This document shows positions 43,978-63,400 of a stretch of DNA of 64,000 nucleotides, one piece after another. Source of the stretch: Dehalococcoidia bacterium (lineage in GTDB: Bacteria > Chloroflexota > Dehalococcoidia > Lucifugimonadales > UBA3495); NCBI GenBank assembly GCA_965208825.1, contig CBDBPP010000005.1, forward strand, positions 1,038,718-1,102,717. The letters run 5' to 3'. Numbering within the stretch: the first letter of the stretch is position 1; each line of letters opens with the position of its first letter. Position numbers and translations under genes: made by a program. The notes under the pieces are model-generated. The model was given only the letters and a program-made list of their open reading frames with translations, searched no databases and had not been told where the DNA came from.

Positions 43978-44003
43978 ACTTTCTGCCCGAATCCGAACGC
44001 GGC

Positions 44004-44768: not shown

Positions 44769-44984
44769 GGAACTCCTCCTGATGCATAGTTGGGCGGTGC
44801 CGCGCCCCTGCGCGTGAGTCGCTTGCCGTTTGTGTCCACTGATGGCGGGGGGCCGCGGACCTCGGCCGGGGGTGCGACGCGCGCCGGAGGCGACGGCGAA
44901 CTGTTATGGGATTCTATCAGATTCGCAAAGGCGGGAATAGCGGAGAGACTCACCCTGGAACCGCTCCTGTTTCGTTGGCCGGTC

Positions 44985-45650: not shown

Positions 45651-45987
45651 TCAATTAGCGTATAGACAGGACATCGTAATGTGTTTACATATATTATTTA
45701 GTGTGAGATATGTATAATATGATGATGATAATAGATAACTGGAGAAACAGTAAATAGTGCTCTACATCGTTTATCTCTACGATATCGGGTCGTTGATCAA
45801 CACACCGACCGGGTTAACTCTGGACCGGCCGTCCTGCGGCCATCTCCGGCGAATTGCTGTAACGAGGGCCGCATAGCGTCTGCGCGGTACATCCGCCGGA
45901 ACAAGCTTTCAGGAGGATTGAGTTGCCCTCGAGGTCTGGTTTCCTCAGTTGCAGGGCATCAATTATCACGGCAGGAGGCGTGCATTC

Positions 45988-46152
45988 ATGGCTTTACAGA
46001 AGAGTGACGGACGGAGGAAAAATGCCATTCGGATGCGACGGCTGAGAGAGCTAAGAAGGATAAAAAGAGAGGAGGCCAGGGCCCGGGAAACAAGGGAACA
46101 GGCATCCATTCTCCTGAGGTCAATGTCCAAGCAGGAAATCGTGCCCAGCTAG
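45988..46152 (+). CDS. Small, highly basic hypothetical protein (54 aa)
   Basis: AGGAGG lies 9 nt upstream of ATG 45988. The sequence is MALQKSDGRRKNAIRMRRLRELRRIKREEARARETREQASILLRSMSKQEIVPS, predicted helical and charged. Confidence 0.4.
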   Translation: MALQKSDGRRKNAIRMRRLRELRRIKREEARARETREQASILLRSMSKQEIVPS

Positions 46153-46356
46153 CTCCGGGATGACAGGTTCAGCCCAATGCTCCCGTCTACGCCTCCACTA
46201 TTGCCCTGGCAGACGCTGGTCCGGCCGAACAGGTCCATCCGTTCTTGGCGGGTCGGCAAGATGATCCCCTCGGCGCGGTCCAGGTCTCGGACTTGCGATC
46301 GGTTCCGAAATCGTGCGGCGGGAGGCACGGCTCGCGGGACGCTCCGTTACGAATCC

Positions 46357-48594
46357 TCAGTCTGATATGCCGGCGGGGGTGGGTTCCTCTTCCCGCACCG
46401 CTCCCTCGATCCCTAAGCGGGGCACCCATTCGAGGAACCGCGGATAGTACCAGTTCCACTCGCCCAGCAGCTTCATCGATGCCGGTACCAACACAGACCG
46501 GACGATGGTGGCGTCAATGAAGATGGCGAAGGCGAGTCCGAACCCCATTTGCTGCGCGGAAACGAACTGACCTGTGGAAAAGCCGCAGAACACGGCCACC
46601 ATGATCAGAACCGCGCCGGTGATCAGTCCCGCCGTCGAACGCAGCCCGTAGGCGACTGCCTCGGTGTTGTCTCGAGTCGAGCTAAACCGCTCGCGCACCC
46701 GGCTCAGCAGAAATACGTGGTAGTCCATGGAGAGGCCGAAGAGAATGCAGAAGAGGAACAGCGGCAGCCATGCCTCCACGATGTCCGATTGCTGGAATCC
46801 CAACGGCTCGCCCCATCCGTGAACGAACATCAGCACGATCATGCCGTATGAGGCGCCCACCGAGAGCAGGTTCAGGATGATCGCCTTGAGTGGAACAATG
46901 ATCGAGCTGAAAACCACAGTCAACAGGATGAAACTCATCCCCAGCACGAACACGAACACCCAGGGCGTGACACTTTCCACCATGTCGAAGAAATCCTTGC
47001 TGAAAGCGCTCTCGCCCGTAACGTAAACCCTTGCATCCACCCCTGCAAGTGCCTGGGGGACGTGGACATCCCGCAACCGGCCTATGCGGTCCACCGACTC
47101 GTCGGTGTAGGCGTCTCCCGAGGACTGGACTGTGACCAGTCCCAAGGTACCGGCCTCGTTGGTTTCGTAGGTCGGCCCGACGAAGTCCGGTGCCTCCTCC
47201 AGGGATGCGGTGAGCCGTTCCACAGCAGCCGCCACCGCCGGGTCATTGGTGTCGCCTTCGACTACGATATTGGTCGGGGTGACCGCCCCGGTGCCGCCCG
47301 AGAAGTCCCGTTCCAGGATGTCGTAAGCCTGCCTGCTCTGGAGGTCCGGGGGCAACGAGCTGAACCCGTTGAATCCGACGTCCAGGCTGAGGGCCGGCAC
47401 CGCCGCGGCGATCAGCAACCCTCCGGCGAGCACAAGGCTGGCAATCGGGTAGCGCATGACCGTTCGAGTGGTCCATCCCCAGAACCCGCCCGTGCTGTTC
47501 TCGGCCTCTGTTTCTGTCCGTTGAAGCCGGCGCCCCACTATTGGTATGCGCAGCGAGTTCACTCGGGGGCCGAGGAGGGATAGCACCGCGGGCAGGAGTG
47601 TCAGCGCCGCCATGACGGCGATGATGACTACGACTATGGGCCCCAGTCCCACGGAACGGAAGATGTTGAGCGGGACCAGAAGCATCCCCAGCAGCGCCAG
47701 CACCACGGTCATACCGCTGAAGAACACAGTCCGGTTTGCCGTGTCGCCAATAATCTCGATGGCGCTCAACTTGTCCTTTCCCTGGGCCAGCTCCTCGCGG
47801 AACCGGGAAACCACGATGAGGGAGTAGTCGATCCCCACGGCGAGCCCGATCATGGTCAGCGTCAGCAGGATCGTCTCCACCTGGGGTTCAGCCAAGCCAA
47901 TGGCCGCAACCGACCCCAGGGCAAGGACAATGCCTATTATGGCCAGTCCGATGGGAAGCAGCGCTGCGATTATGCTGCCGAAGAGCACTAGCAGGATGAC
48001 CAGCGCCGCGGGCACGCCGAAACTCTCCCCGCGCTGTATTTCCTGGGCCGCCAGTTCCGCCGTCTCATGGGTGAAGCTCGATTCCCCGAGAATGAAGTGC
48101 TCGAAACCGCCCTCCCCGCTGGTTGCGATGACATGCTCGTAGATTGGCCCTATTTCCTGGGAGGTGTCGTCCATGCTGCCCGCCAACTGGAACTGGATCA
48201 GCGTGGAGCGGCGGTCCCCGGACACGAGGAGCTCGCTACCGGTGTTGTGGTAGGTGAGCACGTTCTCGATGGTGGGAGGGCCCAGCTCGGCGACGGATCC
48301 GGCGAGAGACTCAACCCGCTCGGCGAAGGCGGGATCATACACCGTTTGTTCACCTGAACGGACTATAATGACTTCGTTGCGTAGCGTGGGCCCGGTGAGC
48401 CGTTCCACCAGCAGGTCCTTGCCCACCTGCGAATCCAGGGGGGTCGTGTATCGCGGTTCCTGAGTGATCGCATCGCCAAACCAGACGAACTGCGCCAGCA
48501 CGGCTATGACCACGAGGGCGACCCATAGGGCAATGGTTTTCCAGGGGCGGCGTGCGCTTGCGACAGCCAGCGACCTTGTCATGATATTCAGCAA
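46357..48594 (-). CDS. MMPL-family (RND-superfamily) transporter
   Basis: 745 aa with two blocks of about six TM helices separated by soluble domains. Contains SRFREELAQGKDKLSAIE...FFSGMTVVLALLGMLLVP. The start is TTG 48594 or ATG 48582. Confidence 0.8.
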   Translation of the reverse strand: MLNIMTRSLAVASARRPWKTIALWVALVVIAVLAQFVWFGDAITQEPRYTTPLDSQVGKDLLVERLTGPTLRNEVIIVRSGEQTVYDPAFAERVESLAGSVAELGPPTIENVLTYHNTGSELLVSGDRRSTLIQFQLAGSMDDTSQEIGPIYEHVIATSGEGGFEHFILGESSFTHETAELAAQEIQRGESFGVPAALVILLVLFGSIIAALLPIGLAIIGIVLALGSVAAIGLAEPQVETILLTLTMIGLAVGIDYSLIVVSRFREELAQGKDKLSAIEIIGDTANRTVFFSGMTVVLALLGMLLVPLNIFRSVGLGPIVVVIIAVMAALTLLPAVLSLLGPRVNSLRIPIVGRRLQRTETEAENSTGGFWGWTTRTVMRYPIASLVLAGGLLIAAAVPALSLDVGFNGFSSLPPDLQSRQAYDILERDFSGGTGAVTPTNIVVEGDTNDPAVAAAVERLTASLEEAPDFVGPTYETNEAGTLGLVTVQSSGDAYTDESVDRIGRLRDVHVPQALAGVDARVYVTGESAFSKDFFDMVESVTPWVFVFVLGMSFILLTVVFSSIIVPLKAIILNLLSVGASYGMIVLMFVHGWGEPLGFQQSDIVEAWLPLFLFCILFGLSMDYHVFLLSRVRERFSSTRDNTEAVAYGLRSTAGLITGAVLIMVAVFCGFSTGQFVSAQQMGFGLAFAIFIDATIVRSVLVPASMKLLGEWNWYYPRFLEWVPRLGIEGAVREEEPTPAGISD

Positions 48595-48817
48595 TATTGA
48601 AAATCGATATCAGTTCATACTAATTCATACGTTAAGTACATGCTAACCGACAAAGGGCCGACAACCGGAAACCGGATTTTACCGCGGCCAGGTGCGGCGA
48701 GTGGAGCGAAATTCCAGGTTTTGTGGGATGATCTACCTTGTTAAACTGGGAGAATCCCTCCAGTACCGAGGCCATTTAGATCACAGTTTCCCAAAATTTT
48801 TCCTGCGGAGACCAGGT

Positions 48818-49831
48818 ATGAAGTTCGGCATCTATAGCTCCATAGCCGACCCGCCTCGAGGCGAGAGACTCGACCTGCGGATTGATGAGGTCGTCGCGGA
48901 AGCCAAGCTGGCGGAGCGGGTGGGATTCGACTCCTGCTTCTTCGGTGAGCATCACCAGGACAAAGACGGTTTCCTCCCCTCTCCGTTGATTGTCGCGACG
49001 GCGGTGGCTGCCCAGACAACCACCCTGAACGTGGGCACGTCGGTAATCCTGCTGCCCTTGCACAACCCCGTGCAGGTGGCGGAGGACGTTATAACCCTGG
49101 ACCTGGTTTCCCGGGGAAGGGTGATCCTGGGCGTCGGCCTGGGCTATCAGGACGCGGACTTCCGGGCCTTCGAGGTGCCTATCCGCCAGCGCGTGGGCCG
49201 GTTCGAGGAGGGCGTGGAGATCATTCGCCACTGCTGGAGCGGGGAACCCTTCTCCTTCCACGGCGAATACCATCGACTGGAAAATCTGCACATCACTCCG
49301 CTCCCCTACCAGGACCCTGCTCCTCCCCTGTGGATCGGGGCCAGCACCATGCCGGGAGCACGGCGGGCCGGGCGTCTTGCCGATGGCTTCGTTGCCACCC
49401 CCAGTATCGACCTGGCCACAGCCGTCGAGCTGGCGGACGCTTACAGGGAGACCGCCTTGCGGGAAGGCCGGGAGAACAGGGTGATACTGATGCGGGACGC
49501 CTGGGTGGCGGAGACTCGCGCAGAGGCCGAGAGGGTGTACGGCCCTGAGGTGATTGCCGCCTACAAGTACTACTGGCGCAACGGCTTGCCTGACTTCCGC
49601 AGCGTCAGGGCGGAAGATGAGATAACCCTCGACAACGTCGGTCCGGACCGCTTGATACTCGGGGACCCTGAGGAATGCGTCGAGGAATACCGGCGCTGGA
49701 GCGAGGCCGTGGGCGCCGATTACTTCCTGCTGCGGCTACGGCACGCCCACTCGGGCGGCCCTCCCCACGAGAGGATTATGGAGGCCATTCGGCTGTTCGG
49801 GGAAGAAGTAATTCCTGCCTGCGCCGGTTGA
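48818..49831 (+). CDS. LLM-class flavin-dependent oxidoreductase
   Basis: The sequence begins MKFGIY and contains ERVGFDSCFFGEHH and GRVILGVGLGYQDADF. GGAG lies 10 nt upstream. Confidence 0.75.
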   Translation: MKFGIYSSIADPPRGERLDLRIDEVVAEAKLAERVGFDSCFFGEHHQDKDGFLPSPLIVATAVAAQTTTLNVGTSVILLPLHNPVQVAEDVITLDLVSRGRVILGVGLGYQDADFRAFEVPIRQRVGRFEEGVEIIRHCWSGEPFSFHGEYHRLENLHITPLPYQDPAPPLWIGASTMPGARRAGRLADGFVATPSIDLATAVELADAYRETALREGRENRVILMRDAWVAETRAEAERVYGPEVIAAYKYYWRNGLPDFRSVRAEDEITLDNVGPDRLILGDPEECVEEYRRWSEAVGADYFLLRLRHAHSGGPPHERIMEAIRLFGEEVIPACAG

Positions 49832-50332
49832 CCTCGGGCAGGGCCCGCGCTTATTTGGACCAACGGAGCGGCACCGAAGGGGCAATCCCTGGGGTTAATC
49901 CTCATGCCCCCAGGATCGTCCGTAATCATCCCGGATCGGTCCGGGTCGAATACTGCAATACCTTCTGGCGCCAGTCAAACGTGGCTCGGACACCTGGCGG
50001 TTGGTAACATTTGCGCCGGAGAGTGAGTCCGTGGCGAACCGATTAGCCCGGTATATTCCTCCACGTCGGGTTCCCGTTGCTCCCCCTGGAGGCATCTTGG
50101 TTTCTTTACAGGCCGGCAAGCGTTATCGTCCCAATTTGGCTGGTTCAACCATGCCACCGTCCGTCATTTCTGTAGATGCGGGGTAACACGTTAACAGATT
50201 GGCAGGAACAGGGGTGCCGGTCAGCAGGCGAAGGGGCGAAACACCGGGAGGGTTCTCGCCGTTTCACGCCACTGACACTGAATGTTCCCTTTCCCGCTAG
50301 CACTGGATTCGGAGGGCAGGTCAAAACAGCCA

Positions 50333-51244
50333 TCAGAGGATACCGTGCTCCGCCAGAAACCGGGTAAGGCCGTCCACGCATTGGCCCGGCTGTTCCAGCG
50401 GCAGAAAATGAGTCGCATCGGGCAGGAAGTCATAGTCCACTTCCACAATGTCACTCAGGTCCAGCGTGGGAAGGTAAGAATAGGGCAGCGTGGGGTCCGC
50501 CCCAATGACTTTTACGGGACAGTGGAGACTGGGAAAGTCCACAAGCACTGCGAAAGTGCTGGCGTAGTCCACAATCTGCGCCTCATACTCCCGGGGGCAT
50601 CGCAGCACAAATCCCGGCCCCTCATCGCTGGCGCGCAGTGTTGTTTCGGCCACCAGTTCCATGACCCCTGGCAACGCTCTTTTGAACATTGGCGAAAACT
50701 CCAGCACGCCTGACAGCTGGGACAGCGATTTGAATGTGGGTGTCCGGTTCCTGGCCGCAGCGGCAGCCTTGTTTGCCGCCATTTCGAATTCCTGTAAACC
50801 GCGCCCCGGCTTGCAAAGGGGAGGATCGAAAAGAACCAGGGCCGAGTACGGAGCACCCCGGGTGGACGAAAGCAGGGACACCAGGCCCGATATGGAATGA
50901 AAGACGCCCACGGTGGGTTTATCCCCGAGGGCGCGAAAGACCGACTCGATAATTAGATCGTGGTCCCGAACAAAGGATGGCATGTTGTGGTTATCGAGAG
51001 AGGACACGGAATTCCAGCCGTGGTTGCGCAGGTCATACAGAACCAGGTCAAAGTCGCTGGTCAGGAGAGACCAGAAAGGAAGGTACAGATCGATGGCCAG
51101 GCCGTTTCCATGGCTCAGCAGCAATCTCGGACCATCGGGATTTCCGTGCCGCCTCAGTATGATCCGGGTCTCGTGGTCCACGGGTATCTCGTGAACTGAC
51201 AAGGGCTCCGGCAGGGTCCAACTGGCGTCCGGTTGCATTGGCAT
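50333..51244 (-). CDS. Alpha/beta-hydrolase-fold protein (candidate chain-releasing or lipid-modifying enzyme of the PKS locus)
   Basis: 303 aa. Contains LLLSHGNGL (oxyanion region) and the nucleophile-elbow-like VGVFHSISGL. Confidence 0.65.
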   Translation of the reverse strand: MPMQPDASWTLPEPLSVHEIPVDHETRIILRRHGNPDGPRLLLSHGNGLAIDLYLPFWSLLTSDFDLVLYDLRNHGWNSVSSLDNHNMPSFVRDHDLIIESVFRALGDKPTVGVFHSISGLVSLLSSTRGAPYSALVLFDPPLCKPGRGLQEFEMAANKAAAAARNRTPTFKSLSQLSGVLEFSPMFKRALPGVMELVAETTLRASDEGPGFVLRCPREYEAQIVDYASTFAVLVDFPSLHCPVKVIGADPTLPYSYLPTLDLSDIVEVDYDFLPDATHFLPLEQPGQCVDGLTRFLAEHGIL

Positions 51245-51264
51245 GCAGCTAGTCCTTTGGCCGC

Positions 51265-51311
51265 AGATTTCCGCAGGTCGGAGAAACTTTATGCCGAACT
51301 TGCGGAAATCT
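51265..51311. promoter_or_regulatory. 11-bp inverted repeat AGATTTCCGCA-25 nt-TGCGGAAATCT just upstream of the hydrolase start
   Basis: Read directly from the sequence. A third partial copy, CCCGCAGTTTCC, follows at about 51319-51330. It could be an operator or a 5'-UTR hairpin. Confidence 0.3.
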
Positions 51312-51970
51312 CCACAGGCCCGCAGTTTCCCCGGCTATGGCGCTGACAGTATACGACTGAACCCACGGAGGTTTGACCGCTTTCCAGTCCGGGCCCGCTA
51401 CCAGTCGAATCGGCTTGGCTCACAGGGTCGTCTCCGGTGTTGCTGGCGCAAGTCCCATGGCCCCGGCGAAACCTGAACCCCCGTACATTCAATGGCAGTG
51501 GCCGGTCACCCCTGCAGCTTCTGCAGCGTGCCGAAGGCTCTCTGATGCGGCTGCTCCCCCCACGGTCTGTCATGGGAGTTCTCCGTACCTCCGTATTCCT
51601 GCGAGGGCCTAGGCCCAATGGACGGCGAGCAACAGAGAATCGTGACCGGGTTCTCTGCAAAAGGCGTGACGGGTGCACTCGTCTCCGCAAGCGACGCGGA
51701 TCACGTCGCCCGGCTCGTCACGGGCAGTGCGCTGGCGCCCTGGGTCAGTGCTGTCCGATGGGGAACGCGTTGCCGCACTGCAGACGCCTGCCCTACAGGT
51801 GATGACTCTGGGTCCGAGCCGAACGATTTCAATTTCAGCCTCCACCAACGCCTGTGTAACGAGGGGGCTGAGGGATGTTCCAGTTACAGTCCGAAACCGT
51901 GGTCATCGGTAGTCTCGCCGGCCCGACGTGGACCGGTCCGCCGTGAAATAAAGGCCCAAAGGTTAAGCGC

Positions 51971-52699
51971 TCATCGCACAATCTTTGTATACGCCAGCGC
52001 CGCTGCGAAATCCTCGGTGCTCAGGTCGACGAGAGTCCACGCCGGGGATTGTTTGCCAGGGAACCGGAAATCCGCCGCCTTTTCGCCCGAGATCATGCTT
52101 TCCGGGCCCTGGAACCCTGAGAAATCGGTATACAGGCCAGTGCCCGACCCTTTTGCCAGTGCCTCTTTCATCGTCCAGATGCGATAGAACAGATGCAGCC
52201 TTCTTTTCCCGGTCAAACCCAGCAGTTTCACTTTCTCGTCGGGCCCCATCACAGTGGCGATCAGGCCCTCCAGGTGGCGGCGCGCCAAACGCTCCTCGAC
52301 ATCCACTCCCACCTCGCTGTCCCTGGAGAGAGCGATCAGGCCGTGATTTACGCTGTGGCTCACGTTGAACCTCAGCGACGCAGGTGCGTCGTCCTTCAGC
52401 ACATAGGGTTTGCCATAGGGGGTTGTATCGAATGAAAGATGATGGTTGGGAGAGTCCAGCTGGGATGAGAGGATCGCCCGCAGGGCTGCTCTGCACAGGG
52501 TATACCGGCGGCCCGCACCGGGAAACAGGAACTTGTCGAGTCGCGACAGCTCATCCTTGTTGAGCCATCCGGCCGCTTCCGATTCGTGGGCAGGGTGGCG
52601 GCGCAGGTCTACATGTACAACCGCCACATCGCCTATAACAGAGATTGGGGACCACCACGGCCCTTCCTCCACGGCGGGAGCCCTCGACGGGAACATCAC
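51971..52699 (-). CDS. Sfp-type 4'-phosphopantetheinyl transferase
   Basis: Contains TPYGKPYV, FNVSHSVNHGLIAL, VGVDVE and WTMKEALAKGSGTGL. Confidence 0.85.
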   Translation of the reverse strand: MMFPSRAPAVEEGPWWSPISVIGDVAVVHVDLRRHPAHESEAAGWLNKDELSRLDKFLFPGAGRRYTLCRAALRAILSSQLDSPNHHLSFDTTPYGKPYVLKDDAPASLRFNVSHSVNHGLIALSRDSEVGVDVEERLARRHLEGLIATVMGPDEKVKLLGLTGKRRLHLFYRIWTMKEALAKGSGTGLYTDFSGFQGPESMISGEKAADFRFPGKQSPAWTLVDLSTEDFAAALAYTKIVR

Positions 52700-52753
52700 C
52701 GGAGGTGGGGGGCTTGCCGGTGGCTCAGTTCCGCTGCTGATGGTCGGACCGGT

Positions 52754-52999
52754 TCAGGAGGTCCTGGCCTCGATAAAGGACACCAGGTCTCCCATGGAGT
52801 TGATGCTTGCGCAGTCCTCGGTAGTCAACGTGAAGCTGAAGTCTTGCGCCACGACCTTGGCGAATTCGACGAACTCAACCGAGGAGAGCCCGGAGTCTCG
52901 CAAACTTGAGTCCAGAGCCAGGGGGCTCCCCTTTGAGCGCCCTTCGATTTCCAGGTTATCGTCCACCAGTTGCCGGATCCTTTCTTCCGTTGAAGGCAT
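52754..52999 (-). CDS. Discrete acyl carrier protein
   Basis: GGGAGGA lies 6 nt upstream of ATG 52999. The phosphopantetheine-site region reads LRDSGLSSVEFVEFAKVV. 81 aa. Confidence 0.75.
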   Translation of the reverse strand: MPSTEERIRQLVDDNLEIEGRSKGSPLALDSSLRDSGLSSVEFVEFAKVVAQDFSFTLTTEDCASINSMGDLVSFIEARTS

Positions 53000-53323
53000 T
53001 GCCTTTCCTCCCAATGGTTTTATCCGTTGTCGCTTGCCTGAAATGGCTGTTTAACCAAAGCCCGTGCAAAGTGACACCGAATGATATCACGATAATATCA
53101 CAAAATGTCTGCTGCAAGAGTTCACGAAACCGTGAGATACGTCTGGGCTATAGGAACGGACGGAACTGCATGATGCACCGGATCATATTGGGGACGCTTA
53201 AGGAGGATAGTGAGTTCCTCGCCTTATCGGGCTTTCCCCATGCATAAAGCGGAGCGGATAGACCAGGACTGGAAATTCCCTGTGGCCCTGGCCCATCGCC
53301 GATCACAAATCGGGCTGGCTGCC

Positions 53324-56211
53324 TCACCGTTTCTGCACCCAGAAGCTCCGGCGCTGGAAGGGGTATGCGGGGATAGAGATTTTCCGCCGCTGTTCCCCGG
53401 CGAACAATCCCTGGAATGACAGGGGCACACCGGAGGAGTAGGCCCTAGCGAGACTCCGCACGAACTGCTCCTGCTCCCTCGTTGCTTCTTCTTGCAGTAG
53501 CGGTAAGTCCTCCACCGTACCGGAACGCACTAGGCCCGGAGAAACTGCGCCGTGAGCCGGGCCAATCTCCACGACGAATTCGGCTTCCAGTTCCCGGAGA
53601 ATCTCTGACAGGTCCGAGGATGCCGCCCCCTGACTCATCGCCTGGTACCAGAAGGCTTTGTCCAGCTTGTCGGAGGCACGAATTACCCGGCCTGCTCCGT
53701 TGCTGAACCAGGCTATGGAAGGCACTGTGGCCTCGATGGGGTCCAGAGAGGTTTCGCCGCGTTTTATCGACAACAGCAGTCGCAGCCCATCCTCGAGGGA
53801 TACCACTCCCGAGGCGAAGGCTGCCGCCACCTCGCCTGCACCTTGTCCGTAGACCACTGACGGCTGAACTCCGGCGCCCTTTAGCAGGACCGTGAGACCC
53901 GCGCCGAGGGCGTAAGCAGCGGCCTCCTCCTGTTCGCCGTTCGGCGGCCCGTCTCCGAACAACGCACCGAGCAGTGGGGCGCCCAGTTCCTCCTTGGCCA
54001 CCTCGTCGCATCGGTCCAGCACCGCGCGGAAGACCGGTTCGGTCTCGTAGAGCTCTCGGCCCAGCCCGCCTGTTTGACCTGGCCCACCCCAGTAGACGAA
54101 GGCCGTTCGGACGGAGGCGGTCGGCGGGGACTGGTCGTCCGCGCCCTCCATTGGAACCAGGGATGCCAGGCCCTGCTTCAACTCCACTGCGTCGCGGAAG
54201 GGGAGGGCTCTTCGGTGGTCGAAGTGACTCCTGCCCGTACCAGCCGACCACGCCATGTTCGACAGGGTGGTCCACGCCTCCTCGTTGTTTCGATCAAACA
54301 GTTCCGCCCGTTCCTCCAGCCAGGACAGGTAACGCTGCGCCAAGTCGCTCATTGCCCCCAATGTCTTCCCCGACATCGGCAGGAGCCGGACCCGCCGCTC
54401 CCCCGGTCCGGTCTGTTGTTCCGCCAACACACCGGTTTCGGCCGACACGAGCCGTGGTGCTCCCGCGGGCTCAGGATTTGGGTCCTCGCCGGTGGCAGGC
54501 GCTCCGTAACCCTCCAGGACGACGTGAGCGTTGGTGCCCGAGAGACCGAAGGAGTTGACGGCGGCCAGTGGCCGTCGGTCCCGGCCGTTCGGCCAGGCCA
54601 TGGCTTCCGTCGAAATGCGCAGCGGCATCCGGTCCCAGTCGAAATCGGGATTGGGGTCGCTGAAGTTCAGGTGGGCCGGAATCATCCTCCGATTCAAGGC
54701 AAGGACGGCCTTGATGATGCTTGCCATGCCCGAGGCCCATTCCAGGTGGCCGATATTGGCCTTGGCGGAGCCGACCACCAACGGTTGGTCCGAGGTGCGG
54801 CCCCTGCCATAGACCGAGGCGATGGCGCGCAGCTCGATGGCGTCACCCAGCAGCGTGCCCGTTCCGTGGGCCTCCAGGAAGTCCACCTCCGAGGGGGCAA
54901 CACCCGCTCGGTCCAGGGCATCCTGCATGACGCGCTCCTGGGCCGGGCCGTTGGGAGTCTGGATGGCGGCGCTGACGCCGTTCTGGTTGAGCGCCGTTCC
55001 GCGGACCAGGCCCCAGATTCGGTCCCCGTCCTCTTCCGCCTCTCCGGCCCGCCGCAGCACCAGGACCCCGCACCCTTCGCCGCGCACGAAGCCGTCGGCT
55101 GCGGCGTCGAAGGCGCTGCACCGGCCCGACTCGGAGAGCATTCCGTGTTCCCTATGGAATTGGACTATCGGCTGCGAGAGCAGGGCGTTGACCCCCGCTG
55201 CCAGGGCCAGGTCCACCTCGCCCCTTTCCAACGCCGCCACCGCCTGGTGCACGGCGGCCAGGGACGAGGCGCAGGCCATGTCGATGGGCATGGCCGGGCC
55301 CTCCAGACCGAGGGCGAAGGCGACCCTGCCTGCCGTGACGCTGCTGGTGGTTCCGAAGAAGCTGTCGTTGCCGCCGCTGGCGGCGATCACTTCCCGGTAC
55401 TCGCTGCCGCCGATGCCTAGGTAGAGGCCGGTGCGGCTGCCCCGCAGCCTGCCGGGGTCGATGCCCGCGTCCTCCAGCGCGTGCCAGGTGGTCTCCAGCA
55501 GCATCCGTTGCTGCGGATCCATGGTGCGGGCCAATATGGGCTGTATCCCGAAGAAGCGGGCGTCGAACCGGTCGATGCCGTCGACGAACCCTCCCAGCCG
55601 GTATGCCGGGTCCTCGGCCATGGGGTCGCCGGTCAGGCCGGCCCAGGATCCCGGGTCACGGCGGCCGTCGGTGATCGTTTGCCGCCCCGACTCCAGGATG
55701 TCCCAGTAGGCCGACAGGTCCGGTGCGCCTGGGAATCGACAGGCCATGCCCACGATGGCGATGCTGTCGCCGAGGTTCCCGCTTTCCAGGCGCGGAGGTG
55801 GCGCCGGCATCTCCTCTCGCGCAGCCCCATTTGCGCCCCCGGCCCCCTCGAGTCCCTCGACGATATGGGCGGCCAGGCTGGCCACGTTTGGGTAGTCGAA
55901 TATCGCCGAGTTGGACAGCGCGAACTGTCCCGCCAGGGAGCGATTAAGCCGGTTGCGCAACTCGACGGACATCAGCGAGTCCATGCCCAGGTCGAAGAAA
56001 CCTACCTGCTGCGCCGGGGCCGATGGCAGGCGCAGCACGGCCTGCAACTCCCGCTGCAGGAAGGCGGTGGCAATGTTCGCCTGTTCCAGGGCGGGAGAAT
56101 CCCGGAGCTGGGACACCAGGTCTATTTCCGCCGTTGGCCCGGCATCGTCGCCTTCCAGTTCCCTGGTTTCCTCCATCAGTTCATCCAGGAACGGGGAGGG
56201 CTCAAAGAGGT
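53324..56211 (-). CDS. Type I PKS, distal fragment: ACP-KS-AT0 (AT remnant)
   Basis: ACP motif is GFFDLGMDSLMSVEL (Ser codon 55976-55978). The KS motifs are DMACASS (Cys codon 55271-55273), EAHGTGT and KANIGHLEWASG. The AT-like region has GQGAGE in place of GHSxGE (53831-53848), and the protein ends ...IPAYPFQRRSFWVQKR. The track start TTG 56224 and its first residues derive from the IS end. Confidence 0.85.
53360..54109 (-). other. Degenerate, shortened AT-like domain (AT0)
   Basis: VVYGQGAGEVAAAFASG aligns with AVVGHSLGEIAAAHAAG of the upstream AT, so His is replaced by Gln and the nucleophile Ser by Gly. About 160 residues separate the motif from YPFQ, against about 265 in the intact AT of the same protein. 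Confidence 0.65.
54509..55768 (-). other. PKS ketosynthase domain (Cys-His-His triad intact)
   Basis: Contains IAIVGMACRFPGA, DMACASS, EAHGTGT and GHLEWASG. Confidence 0.8.
55850..56092 (-). other. PKS in-cis ACP domain
   Basis: Contains LGMDSLMSVELRNRL. Confidence 0.75.
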
Positions 56212-56248
56212 TGTCCCGCGTCAACTACTTTTGCCGATTGAGCGTCAA

Positions 56249-57025
56249 TTAGTTTTGCCGGTTCACCTCCTCTGCGTGGCCCCGTTGCTGTGCCGCATCG
56301 GTGCGGTAGCTGGGGACGTCAAACTCCAGGATGACGGAGTGGTGCACCACCCGGTCGATGGCCGCCGCGGTGGCCATGGGGTTGGCGAAGATGCGTTCCC
56401 ACTCGGAGAAGACCAGGTTGGACGTTATGCCCAGGGACCGGCGCTCGTAGCGCTCGGCGATGAGGGTGAAGAGGACCTCGGACTCCTCGGTCCCCTGGGG
56501 CAGGTAGCCCAGGTCGTCCAGCAGCAGGAAGTCGAAGTTGTCCAGCTTGCGCAGCCGGCGGGGCAGGTCCAGGTCGCGCTTGGCGGCGAGGAGGTCCTGC
56601 ACCAGGCGGTAGGCTGGGACGAAGAGGACGGAGTAGCCGGCTTCCACCAAACGGTGGCCCAGGGCGCACAGGGCGTGGGTCTTGCCGGTGCCGGGCAGCC
56701 CGAAAGCCAGCACGTTGACGCCGCGCTCCACGAAGCTCCCCTGGGCCAGATGATCCATTTGCTGCCGGAGCGCCAGGGGCATCCGGTGGTGATCGAAGGT
56801 CTCCCAGGTCTTGCCCGAGGTCAGCCGGGACTCCTTGCGCAGCCGGTGGGTGCGCCGTTGACGGCGATCCTCGGCCTCCTGCTCCAGCACCTCCAGGAGG
56901 ATGGGCAGGGCGTCGCCGTGGCCGGCGGCGGTGAAACGCTCCACCGACTGAGCTTCCATGGTGGGCAACTTGAATTCGTGGCACAGCTGGCCGATGCGCT
57001 CTTGCACGACGCTGGCGTTCATCAT
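56249..57025 (-). CDS. istB: IS21-family helper ATPase IstB
   Basis: 258 aa from ATG 57025. The Walker A motif is GLPGTGKTH and Walker B is FLLLDDLGY. The track ORF extension to 57625 overlaps istA out of frame. Confidence 0.85.
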   Translation of the reverse strand: MMNASVVQERIGQLCHEFKLPTMEAQSVERFTAAGHGDALPILLEVLEQEAEDRRQRRTHRLRKESRLTSGKTWETFDHHRMPLALRQQMDHLAQGSFVERGVNVLAFGLPGTGKTHALCALGHRLVEAGYSVLFVPAYRLVQDLLAAKRDLDLPRRLRKLDNFDFLLLDDLGYLPQGTEESEVLFTLIAERYERRSLGITSNLVFSEWERIFANPMATAAAIDRVVHHSVILEFDVPSYRTDAAQQRGHAEEVNRQN

Positions 57026-58524
57026 CCGCACACCTCCGTCCCGGCCAGGCTGACGGTGAGCAGACCGTCGTAGACCTTCAGGTCCGGCTTCCCGGACAGG
57101 ACCAGCGCTGGGGCCTCGATCGGCTTGGGCTCGACCAGCTCCCGCACCTCGGCGTAGTTGAAGGACCGGCCGGACTCCAGGAGCAGGGACAGCGCGCTGT
57201 CCACATTGGCCTCCATGGTGGTGGCCGCCAGGTGCAGTATCCGCACGTACTCCACATCGGCCCGTTCGCCCCGCCATTCCCGGAGGGCGTCGTAGGCCAG
57301 GCGGAAGCGCAGGGTGGGAAACAGCTGCTCCCGGTAGCGGTAGCGGGCGAAGGCCCCGGGCTTGCGCACCAGGGAATGGATGACGTGGCGGTAATTGACG
57401 TTGACTTCCCCATCGCCGTGCACCCGCGCCATGCGTTCCACGAGGTGGCCCTTGTAGTACACTTCCACCCAGTCGGCGTACAGACGGACCTGCACCTCCT
57501 GGCCGATCAGGCGGGAGGGCACGCTGTAGCTCCGTCCCGCTACCTGGATGGTGCTCCACCGGCGCACCTTGGACTGGTAGTTGGCGTATTCCGGCATGGG
57601 GGCTGGCGGCAGGGGCCGTAGGCAAGCCATTTCCTGCTCCAGCTTCCCCCTGACCAGGCGATTGCGTTTCTCCACCATCTCCCGGACGAAACCGGCGTAG
57701 TCGTCGGCGGTGTGGAAATCGCGGCTGCCCCGCAGGATGAGGGCCTGGTCTATGGCCTCCTTGAGGCGATAGTGGGCGTGCTCGGCGACGCCGTTTTCAT
57801 GGCTCTGGCCGCGATTGATGCGCGTGGACCGGAGTCCGTAGTGGTCCAGCAGGGCGGCGTAATTGTCGTTCAGCGCCCGGGCGCGGCTGCGGCGTATTTC
57901 ATGGGTGAGGGCGGCGGCATTGTCCGAGCGCACCACCTCCGGGACGCCGCCCAGGGTCCAGAGGGCATTCTGCAATCCCTGCTTGAGGGCCAGGAAGGTC
58001 TCGCCGCCGGCCACCTCGGCGTAGTGCCACCCCGAGTGGCTGAGGATCAGATGGAACAGCAGGTGGGGGTAGGGCTGGCCGGCGACGGTCACTCCCAGGG
58101 CCTTGCCGTGAGTGAAGTCCATCTGGGCTTCCCGTCCCGGCGGATGCTCTTGGGGGAAGTACACCTCCTGATCGGGACCGTGCAACGCCCGCCAGTCCTG
58201 CAATCGCCGTTGCAGGGTGCGCAGCTGGGAGGCGTCGAACCGGCCGGGATGGCGCTCCTCCAGCCATTCGATAATCGTCGTCGCCTTCAGCTTCCCCGTC
58301 GGATCGCCCCGCAGCAGGGGCTCAATCTCCTCCTCCCACACCCCGTCGAAGGGGTCGGGCCTGGTTCGCCACCAGCGCTCTTGCTTCGTCTCTGACGGCA
58401 AGGACCCGCGCTGCCACTTGCGCGCTGAGCGCACGCTCATCCCAGCCACCGCGGCCGCCGTCTCCTGGGTCTTTCCTTTCATAAGCCTCTGCCTCAATAG
58501 CCTGACTTGTCGGTCTTTGATCAT
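57022..58524 (-). CDS. istA: IS21-family transposase IstA
   Basis: 500 aa with an N-terminal HTH (KGKTQETAAAVAGMSVRSARKW) and a DDE region (...EAQMDFTHG...VVRSDNAAAL...). Confidence 0.85.
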   Translation of the reverse strand: MIKDRQVRLLRQRLMKGKTQETAAAVAGMSVRSARKWQRGSLPSETKQERWWRTRPDPFDGVWEEEIEPLLRGDPTGKLKATTIIEWLEERHPGRFDASQLRTLQRRLQDWRALHGPDQEVYFPQEHPPGREAQMDFTHGKALGVTVAGQPYPHLLFHLILSHSGWHYAEVAGGETFLALKQGLQNALWTLGGVPEVVRSDNAAALTHEIRRSRARALNDNYAALLDHYGLRSTRINRGQSHENGVAEHAHYRLKEAIDQALILRGSRDFHTADDYAGFVREMVEKRNRLVRGKLEQEMACLRPLPPAPMPEYANYQSKVRRWSTIQVAGRSYSVPSRLIGQEVQVRLYADWVEVYYKGHLVERMARVHGDGEVNVNYRHVIHSLVRKPGAFARYRYREQLFPTLRFRLAYDALREWRGERADVEYVRILHLAATTMEANVDSALSLLLESGRSFNYAEVRELVEPKPIEAPALVLSGKPDLKVYDGLLTVSLAGTEVCG

Positions 58525-58608
58525 TCCGGCACCTCCGTGCCGGAGGGTTTACCTCATCTCTGACCGGCAAAAATAATCGACGCTACCGGCATTCCTTATT
58601 GTCGTTAA

Positions 58609-60468
58609 TCAGAGGTTTTCTCCAAAGACCGGCCAGTCGACAGCCGCCACCATGGAGGCGGTCACATCCTGGGCCACCAGTTGGTCCAGGGCCCTGATGC
58701 CCTGCTGCGGGGAGATCCAGCCGGTACCGGACGCCGCCAGTTGCCGCTCGATCCGTTCCCGCTGTTCCTCCGCCTCTCCCAGGCCGGACCAGGCGCCCCA
58801 GGCTATGGACTGCCCCGGAAGTCCCCGGGAGCGCCGGTAGCCGGCCAGCTGGTCCAGGAAGGCGTTGGCCGCGGCGTGGTTGCCCTGCCCTGAATTCCCC
58901 AGTACCCCGGTCACGCTGGAAAACAGGACGAACATGTCCAGATCCATGTCCTGCGTGGCCCGGTGCAGGTGCCAGGCGCCCAGGATCTTGGGCCATAGCA
59001 CCTGCTCGAACCGGTCCCAGCTCTGGTTGCCCAGGGCCCCGTCGGAGAGCACGCCGACGCTGTGTATGACCCCCGCCAGGGGCGGCAGGTCCCTTTCCAA
59101 GTGTTCCAGCATGGAGTCCAGGGCCTCCCCACTGGTGACGTCGGCCAGCTCCACGTGGACCCTGGCGCCATTCTGCCGCAGCGCCTCGATGGCCTTCTCG
59201 GTCTTCGGGTCCGGGGGCCGGCGACCGTTGAGGACGATGGCGCCCGCGCCCCTCTCGGCCAGCCAGCCGGCGACGGCGGTGCCGATACCGCCCAGGCCGC
59301 CCGTGACGAGGTAAGTTCGGTCGGCGCGCAGTTGGCCCGTTGCCAGGGGTGGCATCACCATGACGTTCTTGCCGATGTGCCGGGCCGAACGCATGAAGTC
59401 CATGGCCGCGACGATTTCCGTCATCGGCCACCTGTTGTGGACCAGGGGCTGGAGATCCCCAAAGGTGAACCTGTTCGTCACCCTCCTCAAGGACGCGCCC
59501 GGCACCCCCGGGGAATGGATTTTCAGGGCATCCACCTCCAGGACCCGGTAGGCGACGTCGGGGCGGTATGCGGCCATGTCCTGCACGCTCCAGATGTCAC
59601 GACGGCTCATTTCCACGAACCGGCCGTTGGGGGCCAGGCACGACAGGCTGGCCTCGATGTACCCCGGCCCGGTCAGGCTGTTGAGGACAACGCTGACGCC
59701 CTCCCCGCCAGTGGCTTCCATGATCTGTTTGCCGAAGTCCGTGGTCCGGCTGTCGAGGACGTCGCGGATACCCAGGGACCGCAGGTAGTCCTGCTTGGGA
59801 GCGCTGGCGGTGGCGAATACCTCCGCGCCCACCGACTGCGCCAGCTGGATCGCGGCCAGGCCGACCCCGCCGGAGGCGGTGTGGACCAGCACCCGGTCGC
59901 CGGGGGCCAACCCGGTGAAGTCGAAGGATAGCTCGGCGGTGACGAAGGACGTGGGTATGGTGGCCAGTTCCGGCGTCGCCAGGCCCTCGGGGGCGTGGGC
60001 CACCATCTCGGCGCGGGTTACCAGCTCCGGGCGGAATGAGCCGATCGCCAGGCCGATCACCCGGTCGCCGGGCGCGAATTCCTCCACGTCAGGCGCGACC
60101 TCCAGGATGCGGCCGCAGAACTCCTTGCCCAGCATGGGGTCCAGGTCTTCGACCCCCATGCCCAGCAGCACGTCAGAAAAGTTCAGCCCGGTGGCCTCCA
60201 CGGCTGCGCGTACCTCTCCCTCTTTCAGTTCCCTGGACATGAGTGCCTCGGCGTGGAGACCTGAGAGATCACCGCCGGAGTCGGGCACCATTGTCCATGA
60301 GGTGTCCTCGGGCAAGGACTGCCTTTCCTGCCCGGATCTGCTGCGGAGGAGACGGGCCGCCAGTCTTTTTCCGTCCCGGTAGGCGATATGGGTTTCCCGG
60401 TCCGGACGCACCAGCTCGCCGGTCAGCCCTGTCACGGGAATGTCGAAGGAGGGGTCAAGATCGATCAT
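58609..60468 (-). CDS. Type I PKS, middle fragment: rest of psiKR, ER and KR; the stop codon is supplied by the IS end
   Basis: The ER NADPH motif is LVHTASGGVGLAAIQLAQ and the KR motif is TYLVTGGLGGIGTAVAGWL. The KR catalytic region reads SSVTGVLGNSGQGNHAAANAFLD, with His where Tyr is expected. The fragment ends VDWPVFGENL followed by a stop that lies within the IS terminus. Confidence 0.85.
   Translation of the reverse strand: MIDLDPSFDIPVTGLTGELVRPDRETHIAYRDGKRLAARLLRSRSGQERQSLPEDTSWTMVPDSGGDLSGLHAEALMSRELKEGEVRAAVEATGLNFSDVLLGMGVEDLDPMLGKEFCGRILEVAPDVEEFAPGDRVIGLAIGSFRPELVTRAEMVAHAPEGLATPELATIPTSFVTAELSFDFTGLAPGDRVLVHTASGGVGLAAIQLAQSVGAEVFATASAPKQDYLRSLGIRDVLDSRTTDFGKQIMEATGGEGVSVVLNSLTGPGYIEASLSCLAPNGRFVEMSRRDIWSVQDMAAYRPDVAYRVLEVDALKIHSPGVPGASLRRVTNRFTFGDLQPLVHNRWPMTEIVAAMDFMRSARHIGKNVMVMPPLATGQLRADRTYLVTGGLGGIGTAVAGWLAERGAGAIVLNGRRPPDPKTEKAIEALRQNGARVHVELADVTSGEALDSMLEHLERDLPPLAGVIHSVGVLSDGALGNQSWDRFEQVLWPKILGAWHLHRATQDMDLDMFVLFSSVTGVLGNSGQGNHAAANAFLDQLAGYRRSRGLPGQSIAWGAWSGLGEAEEQRERIERQLAASGTGWISPQQGIRALDQLVAQDVTASMVAAVDWPVFGENL
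58774..59322 (-). other. PKS ketoreductase catalytic subdomain (Tyr to His at the catalytic position)
   Basis: Contains TGGLGGIG and HSVGVLSDGAL (LxD, B-type-like). The sequence GNHAAAN has CAC at 58876-58878. Confidence 0.7.
59353..60297 (-). other. PKS enoylreductase domain
   Basis: MDR-type domain with GLNFSDVLLGMG and HTASGGVGLAAIQLA. Confidence 0.7.
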
Positions 60469-63400
60469 CCGGGGGGTGCAGGTTTCCTGCCTCCCGGGCC
60501 ACCGCCTTGCCGAAGCCCCAGAGCGAGGCGCCCGCCAGCTCCGCCACGCTGTCGCGCATGTAGTCGCGTTCCAGGGCCTGGGCGCCCCGGGTCACGAACC
60601 AGGTGCCCAGGTTGGGCAAGGTTCCCGCGTCGAGGATGCCCTGCACCATGGCCAGGGCCGAGGCCCCCGCCTTCCTCGTATCCTGGGCCAGTTCGCTGGT
60701 TGAGGCTTCCCTTCCATGGCCGTCAAGGGAGACCAGGTGCACCAGTCCGCTGAAAGGCGCATCCTTGGGCAGTTTCTCGATGAGCGAGCGCCAGTCCTCC
60801 CTGTTTTCCGGGTCCAGCGAGACCCGCATGATTCCATCCGGGGAGACGGATCCGGCGCCGTTGACCTGCGCCCCGGCCAGCGCCACGGTCTGGTTCTGCG
60901 CCGCCAGCTCGGCGGCGAGCTCCTCTGCCACGGCGCCTTCGTCCGACGCCAGTACCCAGACCCCTCGCGGCTGGACTATCTCGCCGGGCCCCCGGGCCAT
61001 GATGACTCCGGAGCCGAGGGGAGGCTCGTCGCTCCCCCGATCTCCGCCCAACACCCTGGCATCCTCCATCCCGACGTCGGTGAGCGCACGGACCCAGGTG
61101 TCCGGGGAGGCCAGGGCGTGCTCGGTCCTGTAGGCATCGGAAAACCGCCACCAGCCGTCCAGCTGCCCAAAGGTCAGGTCCTGCCACCCTCGGGCCCGGA
61201 GACCCTCCAGGGCCATCAACTGCCCCGAGGGGGCCAGCAGGTCGCGGCAATGGGAGAGAGTCTCGCCCAGGTCCCTGGTGGCGTGCAGCACGTTTACCGC
61301 GATGACCAGGTCGTAGGAGTGCAGTTCGAAACCCTGGGTGGCCGGATCCCTTTCCACGTCCAATGTGCGGTATTCCATGGGCGCGCCGTATTCCTCGAAG
61401 CGCTCCTCTGCCGAGGCGAAGAAACCGGCGGAGATGTCGGTGAAGACGTATTCGAAATTATCCGCCGGGAGCTGCGGAAGTACGACGGCGGTCCCCGAGC
61501 CGGTACCGCCCCCCACTTCCAGCACCCGCAGGGAACGATCCCCGGGCCACTGCGCCACGGCGGAGGTCACCGCATCGGCCAGGAGCCGGTTGGATGCTCT
61601 AGATGCCGGGGCGGTGAAGTAGAAATCCGCAGCATTCGGACCGTCGCTCCGGAACAGGATGGACAGGGGGTCCGTATTGCCCTGCAGCACCTCGGACAGG
61701 GCAGCTCCGCTCCGGCGCAGCAGACCCACCTCGTTTGCACCGTGGGGATGGCGCTCGGTGATCAGGTCCGCGAAGCTCTCCGGATCGGCCAGGGCCTCGT
61801 CCGGGAGGGGATCGCCAGCCCCGATGGTCACCCGGAAACTGTCCGTCCCGGTCGGGACCAGTACACCGGCATCACAGAGCAGTTTCAGCATCCGGCCCAT
61901 CAGCCGGGAATGAGCTGGCATTACTTCGAAACGTGCCAACAGGTCGTCGGCCCTGACGGCTTCACCGGCGGTTCTGTGCCAACCCAGCCGTTCGAGGGCG
62001 TGGAGCACGTAAGAACGGGAGAGTCTCTCCAGATCATCCAGCATGGTGGCGCGGTCCCCGATGCCGACTCCCTCCTCTCCCAGGTAACCGGCGAAGGTAT
62101 CGACCGTCCCGGCGGTTTCCGATGGAGAGATCAGCTCCCCGGCGGAAAGCAAGGCGGTGGAAAGAGGGGCATCCCGCCAGACGGTCTCGTACAGCAGACC
62201 CTGGAGGGCTTCCGAGGCGGAAAGCAGGGAGGCCCTGGTGGCCCGCTTCACGGTGAATCCGGACAGCCCCCCGACGGGTTTTCCCTCCTCGTTGTACAAC
62301 CACATGTCCCCGGTCAGGGTCTCCGGCGACGAAGCCACCCCGTCAGCTTGGGCAGTAGCCCCGCCCGAAATTCGCAGTCGAGCATGGCACACCACCCGGT
62401 CCTGCAACGGGCCGTCCAGCCAGAAACGTTCCCAGCCGAAGGGCAAGTAGGTCTCGTCGCCCCCAACACCGGAAATCATGCGGGTGGCTGAAAGCACCTG
62501 GAAGCAGCCGTCAAGGAGCAGGGGATGGATCTCCATACCCGCGCCGTCGCTCGGTCCCTGCAGCGCGATTTCCCCGACAGCTTCTGAGCTCTCGCACCAC
62601 AGCCCGGTCACGGTGCGCAGGCTGGGGCCGAATGCCAGGCCCGAGGCCGCTTTGTCCCGGTAATAGGCGGCCAGGTCCTGCTCCCGCAGCCTGCGCTTGA
62701 GCTGGGCGAAATCCACCCACTCCCCGCTTGGGTGGCGGTCAGGACCCTGTTCGATGTCACCCTCGGCGTGCAGCGTCCAGCCCTCCCCGGCGGAATCACG
62801 GCTGTAGACCTCGAAGTGGCGGGACTGCCCTGTTCTCGCCCCGTCGGTAACTATCTGTAGGCGTTTGCCAGCCGACTCCCCATCGCTGTCCTCGGGGAAC
62901 ACCAGCGGACTGTGCAGTTGAAGGTCGCTGACCACGGAGGTGGACGCTCCCTCGGTGAAGGGAACGGAGGCCGCCATGGCCCCGTATACCGCGCCGGGCA
63001 TGACCACCCGGCCGTACACCCGGTGATCGTCCAACCAGGCGGGATCGGTCGGGAGCATTTCCGTCTCGAACATGACCTCGCCCCGGGGCGACTCGTGCCT
63101 GGTTCCCAGCAGGGCGTGGGCGTCGCTCGACTGCGCTCGCCTGGCCGAGGGGACCCAGTGGCGGCGGCGCTGGAAGGGGTAGGTCGGCAGCGGAATCCTC
63201 CGACGCCTTTCGCCAGCGAACAACCCCGGAAAATGCAGGGGCAGCCCGGCCTCGTACGCTCGTGCGACGGCCCGAGCGAAGGCCTCGGCCCGCTCCGGCT
63301 CCGACCCGTCGGCAGCAGGCCGAAGCAGGCTGGGCATCACGAGGGGCGCCCCGGGCCTGCCCGGACCCTCCGGCCAGTTGAGAGATACCAGGGGACCCAG

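Follow-up and report, generated by a model that had tools for sequence, protein, structure and literature searches.

In a 64,000-nt stretch of a Dehalococcoidia bacterium (contig CBDBPP010000005.1; the whole stretch is hereafter called the window), we found that the last coding segment of a polyketide synthase (PKS) gene most probably encodes the C-terminal acyltransferase-like domain (AT0) of a SupA-type synthase, a reading to which we give a probability of about 0.8. According to this reading, AT0 is an acyltransferase (AT) that is dead throughout its family, arose by duplication of the first ketosynthase-acyltransferase pair (KS1-AT1), persists as a folded scaffold in a module whose acyl carrier protein (ACP) acts in trans, and belongs to a gene broken here by an insertion sequence (IS). 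The segment, 53324..54109 on the minus strand, corresponds to the last 261 residues (706-966) and the stop codon of a 966-aa open reading frame (ORF), 53324..56224 on the minus strand.

Pfam and the sequence gave the order of this ORF as ACP, ketosynthase (KS), KS-AT linker, AT-like core, post-AT linker and stop. PP-binding was placed at residues 56-121, the N and C parts of ketoacyl-synt at residues 154-521 and KAsynt_C_assoc/CurL-like linker at residues 524-689, and Acyl_transf_1 matched residues 709-821 only, covering profile positions 2-117 of 319 (53.9 bits, E=2.6e-14; gathering score 32.7). The C-terminal end reads YPFQRRSFWVQKR followed by the stop. The original prediction had described a KS with a full Cys/His/His triad, then a dead and shortened AT with no ACP or thioesterase (TE) behind it; the domain order and motifs agree with this description, in that Pfam annotation found the KS intact and the AT only in part, and the ORF stops right after YPFQRRSFW. 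The parts of the ORF, all on the minus strand, are as follows.

55862..56059, minus strand: ACP1, the in-cis carrier of module 1 (Pfam PP-binding; residues 56-121; Ser83 in GMDSLM)
54500..55765, minus strand: KS2, the second ketosynthase (Pfam ketoacyl-synt N and C)
54125..54499, minus strand: KS-AT linker, residues 576-700 (Pfam KAsynt_C_assoc, CurL-like_PKS_C and RhiE-like_linker; high-confidence model)
53510..54124, minus strand: AT0 core, residues 701-905, AT large subdomain only (partial Pfam match, AT1 alignment, AlphaFold2 model)
53324..53509, minus strand: post-AT linker (FQGLFAGE...YPFQRRSFW) and stop (sequence)

We found that the inactivation of AT0 extends across the family. GQGAGE, at residues 793-798 (53831..53848), occupies the position of the GHSxGE motif, so that the Ser-to-Gly replacement claimed earlier could be read directly. 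In 58 orthologous ORFs from genome loci, the nucleophile position held Gly in 43 and Asp in 4 and was absent in 11, and Ser occurred in none (0/47) of those having an AT core. With residues 600-966 as the query, 224 relatives were found; some 100 of them spanned the whole query at 35-47% identity and ended a few residues past YPFQRRRHW. About 100 database relatives read GxGxGE (GQGLGE, GHGPGA, GQDLGE and others) at the nucleophile position, and GHSLGE was found among the database relatives only in module-1 ATs. The residue preceding the former nucleophile varies freely (Q, H, R, S, D, Y, W and others), conservation is high in the helices near the former active site, as in AAAQAAGV.LEDGLR, and the post-AT linker is the most conserved part of the tail, with Y, F and W invariant in 108 relatives. 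The window AT0 itself deviates from family-conserved residues, as at S750P, C775A and S783G.

Aligning AT0 with module-1 ATs of the same family revealed a single deletion of about 90 residues, close to the roughly 100 originally estimated, which maps near 53770 in the window and runs from just past LEDGLR(F/L)A to just ahead of LxxLEAxxxxVxVxxPS. This deletion takes out the RGxLM arginine (which a few relatives retain), the whole small subdomain and the xAxHS histidine. None of the AT0-core columns held His at ≥30% among 108 family members, and hence no alternative Ser-His dyad, which would have spoken for an active enzyme, is present in the region. These results indicated that the dead AT is a conserved family trait, not a peculiarity of the window protein, and that AT0, judged by its motifs, is predicted to be unable to transfer acyl groups.

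The remnant nevertheless appears to retain a fold. Residues 560-966 were modelled with AlphaFold2 from an alignment of 108 sequences, and the model reached a mean pLDDT of 83.8 and a pTM of 0.85, with most 10-residue blocks of the core at about 90 or higher. All top Foldseek matches in the PDB were PKS AT or KS-AT structures (ZmaA AT, 4qbu; CurL KS-AT, 4mz0; Pks13 AT, 3tzy; DEBS, 2hg4), with E-values of 1e-14 to 1e-17 and query TM-scores of 0.65-0.69. Both Pfam and the model contain the large subdomain only, the small ferredoxin-like subdomain of the two-subdomain AT fold not being present. A comparison of a predicted structure with intact ATs had been proposed with the original prediction, and in it the confident model resembles the AT large subdomain, such that AT0 is predicted still to fold as one.

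Considering the origin of this domain, AT0s and AT1s of the family share 55-65% identity in aligned columns, as much as AT1s from different genomes share among themselves (56%); the window AT0 is more diverged, at 37-39% identity to AT1. KS2 is 52-55% identical to family KS1s (448-477 bits), compared with 397 bits for CurL, the best solved KS. Because KS2 is closer to KS1, and AT0 is close to AT1, KS2-AT0 appears to be an internal duplicate of KS1-AT1. Selection was estimated by the Nei-Gojobori method in eleven genome pairs, of which L066/L060 had saturated synonymous rates in the linker domain (LD), AT0 core and post-AT regions. The ratio of nonsynonymous to synonymous rates (dN/dS) was 0.03-0.15 for KS2 and 0.14-0.43 for the AT0 core, with AT0 values of 0.25-0.30 for the window against its orthologues L005 and L008. 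AT0 is thus under relaxed purifying selection and is not neutral.

Classing loci by the distance from the second KS2 His to the stop codon revealed a graded series.

469-521 aa: 39 loci, AT0 as in the window
415-424 aa: 5 loci, shorter AT0 (L007, L009, L013 and L081 among them)
326-348 aa: 2 loci, AT0 further reduced (L051, L082)
250-275 aa: 10 loci, AT core gone entirely

The core-less loci belong to Dehalococcoidia (L018, L044, L063, L077) and Acidimicrobiia (L026, L039, L043, L050, L057, L059, including Ca. Poriferisocius), and in all ten KS2 keeps Cys/His/His, with nothing after it but the KS-AT linker and the post-AT peptide. Since the AT core was lost in ten loci with KS2 intact, the AT0 remnant appears dispensable. 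The series suggests that AT0 is being lost stepwise and independently, and the layout at its end is identical to that of a trans-AT KS with its flanking subdomain.

In contrast to AT0, KS2 has the features of a working enzyme. Its triad consists of Cys318 (MACASS), His453 (EAHGTG) and His493 (NIGHLE), with the Cys present in 58/58 orthologues, the first His in 55/58 and the second in 58/58, and the dN/dS of the window KS2 against its closest relatives is about 0.1. KS2 groups with the KSs of cis-AT systems, CurL and DEBS scoring above PksJ/PksL. A seemingly close match to PDB 7zma (534 bits) was dropped, because it was the sum of two ordinary KS matches of about 265 bits each in a two-KS chain. 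These features predict that KS2 is a working decarboxylative condensing enzyme.

The original prediction had treated the megasynthase as one continuous protein, and in the window this proved incorrect. An IS21-family element between the ketoreductase (KR) and ACP1, together with a frameshift further upstream, breaks supA into the following parts; supA leaves the window at 64000 inside AT1, and KS1 lies beyond the window end.

60455..64000, minus strand: supA fragment 1, containing AT1, dehydratase (DH), C-methyltransferase (MT) and the structural part of KR (Pfam Acyl_transf_1, PKS_DH_N/PS-DH and Methyltransf_12; sequence)
60471..60476, minus strand: run of six C with one extra base, a +1 frameshift (comparison with L005 and L008)
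58609..60468, minus strand: supA fragment 2, containing enoylreductase (ER) and KR (Pfam ADH_N, ADH_zinc_N and KR; junction sequence)
56212..58611, minus strand: IS21-family element, 2,400 bp (Pfam rve and Mu-transpos_C_2, IstB_IS21; inverted repeats)

Elements of the IS21 family carry istA, for a DDE transposase, and istB, for an AAA+ helper, in about 2-2.7 kb. The inserted element matches the family in its gene order of istA (57022..58524) then istB (56249..57025), its length, its TG...CA ends, its repeated terminal motifs and its short target duplication, which is the 5-bp ACCTC at 58612..58616 and 56207..56211; no second copy was found within the 64-kb window. Fragment 2 terminates at a stop codon created by the IS junction, and the 966-aa ORF takes its TTG start codon from within the IS end. 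When the element and one copy of the repeat are taken out, ...DWPVFGENL continues in frame into FEPSPFLDELMEE..., which yields a 1,579-aa ER-KR-ACP-KS-AT0 reading frame; its restored junction is collinear (81% over 250 aa) with L005 and L008, the closest orthologues, neither of which carries the insertion.

At the six-C run, two ORFs in different frames (60455..63976 and 58609..60468) overlap, and ER-KR is thereby shifted from the frame of AT-DH-MT. With one C removed, the sequence reads ...AREAGNLHPRMIDLDPS..., which lines up with ...AREAGYLQPRMIDLDPG... in the continuous L005 and L008 ORFs (at least 2,882 aa); the additional base could reflect either a true mutation or an error in sequencing the homopolymer. 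The perfect target duplication and in-frame excision indicate that the insertion is recent and postdates AT0, and the dN/dS of about 0.1 still seen for KS2 likewise indicates a recent disruption of supA. Because the IS parts module 1 from ACP1, the pathway is probably inactive in the window genome, or the sup locus is at best split.

The complete orthologues L002 and L004 begin with KS-AT, and the window itself holds AT-DH-MT-ER-KR-ACP, with the AT1 nucleophile motif GHSLGE at about 63950-63970. The ancestral order of supA is KS1-AT1-DH-cMT-ER-KR-ACP1-KS2-AT0, followed by a stand-alone ACP, a phosphopantetheinyl transferase (PPTase) and an alpha/beta hydrolase. The earlier claim of an upstream AT in the same protein therefore holds for the family layout and fails here, where the IS21-family element and the frameshift separate the two. 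The small genes, which had been predicted from the letters as a stand-alone ACP, an Sfp-type PPTase and a nearby hydrolase, were recovered by Pfam and NCBIfam downstream of supA on the same strand.

52754..53014, minus strand: discrete ACP (SupB-like), 86 aa (Pfam PP-binding)
51971..52699, minus strand: Sfp/HetI-type 4'-phosphopantetheinyl transferase (SupC-like) (Pfam ACPS and AASDHPPT_N; NCBIfam HetI-like)
50333..51244, minus strand: alpha/beta hydrolase (SupD-like) (Pfam Abhydrolase_6)

The likely true start of the discrete ACP is the Met at 52999; its attachment Ser, residue 45, is invariant in 80/80 sequences; the attachment Ser of ACP1 is conserved in 44/44. Ser117, Asp250 and His279 of the hydrolase are invariant columns. 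The hydrolase has more than 3,300 relatives, the top 120 at 62-73% identity. Searches of the PDB and NCBIfam gave no specific match for the hydrolase, only weak generic alpha/beta-hydrolase hits (best E=3e-5), and its relatives carry only generic 'alpha/beta hydrolase' labels. Across phyla, its mean column identity is 66%, compared with about 60% for KS2 and about 40% for AT0, and this high conservation suggests a tightly constrained substrate or partner. To judge from these sequences, the sup cassette has probably spread horizontally.

About 310 bp (53015..53323) separate the stop of supA from the gene for the discrete ACP, compared with about 110-260 bp in L001, L003 and L005. GC content is 0.59-0.62 over 44000..54000 of the window and 0.64-0.68 on either side; the dip spans the small sup genes, an LLM oxidoreductase, possibly F420-dependent (48692..49831), an MMPL transporter (46357..48594) and a dienelactone hydrolase (44004..44768). 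Of these, the LLM and MMPL genes were rejected as members of the cluster, not being conserved neighbours in 84 loci. They occupy the place beside the hydrolase where no permease was found in the window, and the sup cluster of the window probably ends at the hydrolase.

Scanning genomes, one per species, for relatives of the hydrolase identified at least 592 species genomes, and taxonomy is described here for the best 80 of them, with isolation sources taken from record titles only. These 80 were metagenome-assembled genomes (MAGs) of Dehalococcoidia/SAR202, Latescibacterota, Gemmatimonadota, Acidimicrobiia (including Ca. Poriferisocius), Acidobacteria, Binatia and Ca. Spongiisociaceae, all of them phyla characteristic of sponge symbionts; sponge lineages were named in several of the titles. 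The nearest relatives were Dehalococcoidia MAGs, and the window bacterium would itself be of the sponge-symbiont type. In most loci, ACP1-KS2-linker-AT0, ACP, PPTase and hydrolase were collinear, and a permease of about 556-582 aa adjoined the hydrolase in about 40 loci, or about half. On four metagenomic contigs, the PKS precedes genes for an ACP (about 80 aa), a PPTase (about 250 aa) and a hydrolase (about 303 aa), and two of these contigs carry a convergent Xan_ur permease of 556-582 aa as well. PKS genes are often broken up on these low-coverage long-read contigs, which accounts for the short database proteins. In L001 (1..11923), the KS2-AT0 gene begins in mid-KS, lacking the region of the active-site Cys, and lies directly downstream of PhageMin_Tail and BNR-repeat genes, resembling a supA truncated at its 5' end beside a mobile or phage-derived region.

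In its architecture, gene order, host taxa and SupE permease, the cassette agrees with the cluster published as sup (sponge symbiont ubiquitous PKS). SupA is said to have a second KS with a non-functional AT, and SupB, SupC and SupD are reportedly an ACP, a PPTase and a hydrolase, respectively. The cluster is reportedly confined to bacterial symbionts of high-microbial-abundance sponges, among which it is common in several phyla, and its KS is said to fall into a distinct Sup clade of KS phylogenies. The taxa of the best 80 genomes agree with this spread. The sup genes have been named, and SupE listed as a permease, in a clone from an Aplysina aerophoba symbiont (PMC3908369). The small, mono-modular PKS encoded by supA predominates among sponge KS amplicons and is the proposed maker of mid-chain-branched fatty acids (PMC4245539). 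A wide spread of the cluster over the phyla of sponge symbionts has been described (PMC4245539, PMC9426513), with SUP-like clusters in MAGs of several phyla in every sponge studied (PMC9426513). No functional characterisation or experimental proof of the sup product was found in the literature searched.

The features shared with the sup cluster (supA-supE; Fieseler et al. 2007, Appl Environ Microbiol 73:2144) are a fatty acid synthase (FAS)-like single C-methylating module, KS-AT-DH-MT-ER-KR-ACP, and an occurrence in MAGs of sponge-symbiont-type phyla. The accessory order ACP, PPTase, hydrolase is probably shared as well, and the permease present in about half of the loci fits the documented SupE. 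Unlike that cluster, the window copy has no permease and is interrupted by an IS21-family element as well as by a frameshift. Trans-AT PKSs in which a KS carries a flanking subdomain (RhiE, PksJ/PksL, MgsF) are similar in having a KS, a KS-AT linker and a returning post-AT peptide with no working cis AT, as well as a carrier loaded in trans, and ten sup orthologues have exactly this reduced layout. However, the window protein keeps about 205 residues of a folded AT large subdomain, its KS2 groups with cis-AT KSs, and its partner ACP is encoded separately. Mycocerosic acid synthase (MAS)-like PKSs and animal FAS share the fully reducing KS-AT-DH-(MT)-ER-KR-ACP order for methyl-branched saturated chains, and their KSs are clear relatives, but both are without a second KS, AT0 or stand-alone ACP, and MAS takes its methyl groups from methylmalonyl-CoA and not from a C-methyltransferase. 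Pks13 of mycobacteria likewise has a late-acting KS-AT that receives a finished long chain, and its AT is among the best fold matches, whereas its active AT, two ACPs and TE in cis, and its joining of two long chains, have no counterpart in the sup protein.

The arrangement of KS-AT0, ACP, PPTase and hydrolase was found co-conserved in dozens of genomes when homologous loci were surveyed, which makes the split second module of the original prediction, KS2-AT0 with a trans ACP and the hydrolase as likely off-loader, the natural and well-supported reading of these sequences. Module 1 would extend an acyl primer by one malonate, with C-methylation and full reduction on ACP1. KS2 would then take the alpha-methyl, fully reduced chain from ACP1 and condense it with malonyl on the discrete ACP, which the neighbouring PPTase would prime and either AT1 or the FabD of the cell would load in trans. 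The hydrolase would off-load or transfer the product; alternatively, the free, FAS-like ACP could deliver the chain to type II fatty-acid synthesis, where the methyl would become a mid-chain branch, in line with the published hypothesis on the sup product. The duplicated AT would have lost its nucleophilic Ser, its catalytic His, usually its Arg and the entire small subdomain, and what is left, AT0, would be a non-catalytic scaffold, still folded, that is placed between the KS-AT linker and a post-AT linker returning to wrap around KS2.

Several points weigh against this reading. SupA was identified indirectly, by its architecture, gene order, host taxa and the SupE permease, and the mid-chain methyl-branched fatty acids ascribed to sup are a published hypothesis only (PMC4245539). 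The loader of the discrete ACP, the use of that ACP by KS2 and the role of the hydrolase are steps that we infer. ACP, PPTase and hydrolase stand without KS2/AT0 within 10 kb on either side in L006, L030, L032, L033, L036, L038, L040, L054, L073 and L084, such that this trio may exist or function apart from supA. In L037, L051 and L067, Gln replaces the first KS2 His at the position of window residue 453, which could block decarboxylation, and KS2 may not elongate in every lineage.

Among the other explanations, recent local decay of supA as a pseudogene would account for a dead and short AT in a gene that carries an IS21 insertion and a frameshift, and the departures of the window AT0 from family-conserved residues and its lower identity to AT1 than that of other AT0s point the same way. 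We rejected decay as the cause of AT0 and regard it as highly improbable, since the Ser loss and the same deletion are found in more than 100 relatives, including 44 uninterrupted ORFs in several phyla, the dN/dS of the window AT0 against L005 and L008 is not near 1, and the IS came after AT0. That the region might not derive from an AT at all, and instead be a non-AT linker or docking domain as in trans-AT PKSs, is suggested by the RhiE-like and CurL-like linker families that Pfam reports just upstream and by the ten loci in which KS2 is followed only by linker and post-AT peptide. This idea is scarcely credible given that residues 709-821 exceed the Pfam gathering score for ATs, that the core aligns column by column to sup AT1 at up to 65% identity and that the model matches AT large subdomains in the PDB; a known non-AT linker, which the original prediction had named as the finding that would overturn it, is thus excluded by Pfam, the AT1 alignment and Foldseek.

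Two further alternatives concern function. AT0 could have a non-canonical job that needs no Ser-His dyad, such as a docking platform for the discrete ACP, FabD or the hydrolase, or a chain gate for KS2. Persisting purifying selection (dN/dS <0.45), a fold kept in most lineages and the conserved helices around the former active site would fit such a job, yet the core was lost in ten Dehalococcoidia/Acidimicrobiia loci with KS2, ACP and hydrolase intact, and the residue ahead of the former nucleophile is free to vary, which leaves this alternative unlikely. KS2, in turn, might not extend a chain and might instead join chains head to head as in Pks13, pass a chain on, or make a beta-keto product released for decarboxylation to a methyl ketone, given a second module without a working AT or reducing domains, an NCBIfam Pks13 model as second-best match (549 bits) and the three orthologues with Gln for the decarboxylation His. 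The Pks13 score, however, falls far short of the cut-off of 2,100 bits and can be put down to the general similarity of KS-AT regions. The sup protein also lacks the active AT, the second ACP and the TE in cis on which condensation of the Pks13 type depends, and Cys/His/His is kept in 55/58 orthologues, so we give a non-elongating KS2 low odds.

A more specific version of the split-module reading, which we put forward tentatively as possible, though on the whole doubtful, is that KS2-AT0, the free ACP and the hydrolase form a hand-over module, in which KS2 would extend the alpha-methyl chain once onto the FAS-like ACP and the branched primer would be returned to type II FAS, and in which the AT0 series would record a duplicated AT that was lost after trans loading took over. 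If this were true, KS2 would accept an alpha-methyl chain that FabF/FabB handle poorly, the methyl branch would come to lie mid-chain, and the AT0 remnants, from full AT through large subdomain only to nothing, would form a natural series from cis-AT to trans-loaded modules.

The family itself is already known and very widespread, and the window locus is a disrupted member that is otherwise ordinary for it; the selective regime of AT0, its origin by KS1-AT1 duplication and the series from full AT to no AT are contributed by this analysis. The sup cluster has been described among the most abundant biosynthetic gene sets of sponge microbiomes. For pathway reconstitution, the second module is to be taken as a KS that is intact and strongly constrained, an AT that is dead and dispensable, and an ACP acting in trans, with the small ACP, PPTase and hydrolase included, and an uninterrupted orthologue such as L005 or L008 is a better starting point than the IS-disrupted window copy. 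The graded loss of AT0 across lineages offers a natural example of a cis-AT module turning into a trans-loaded one.

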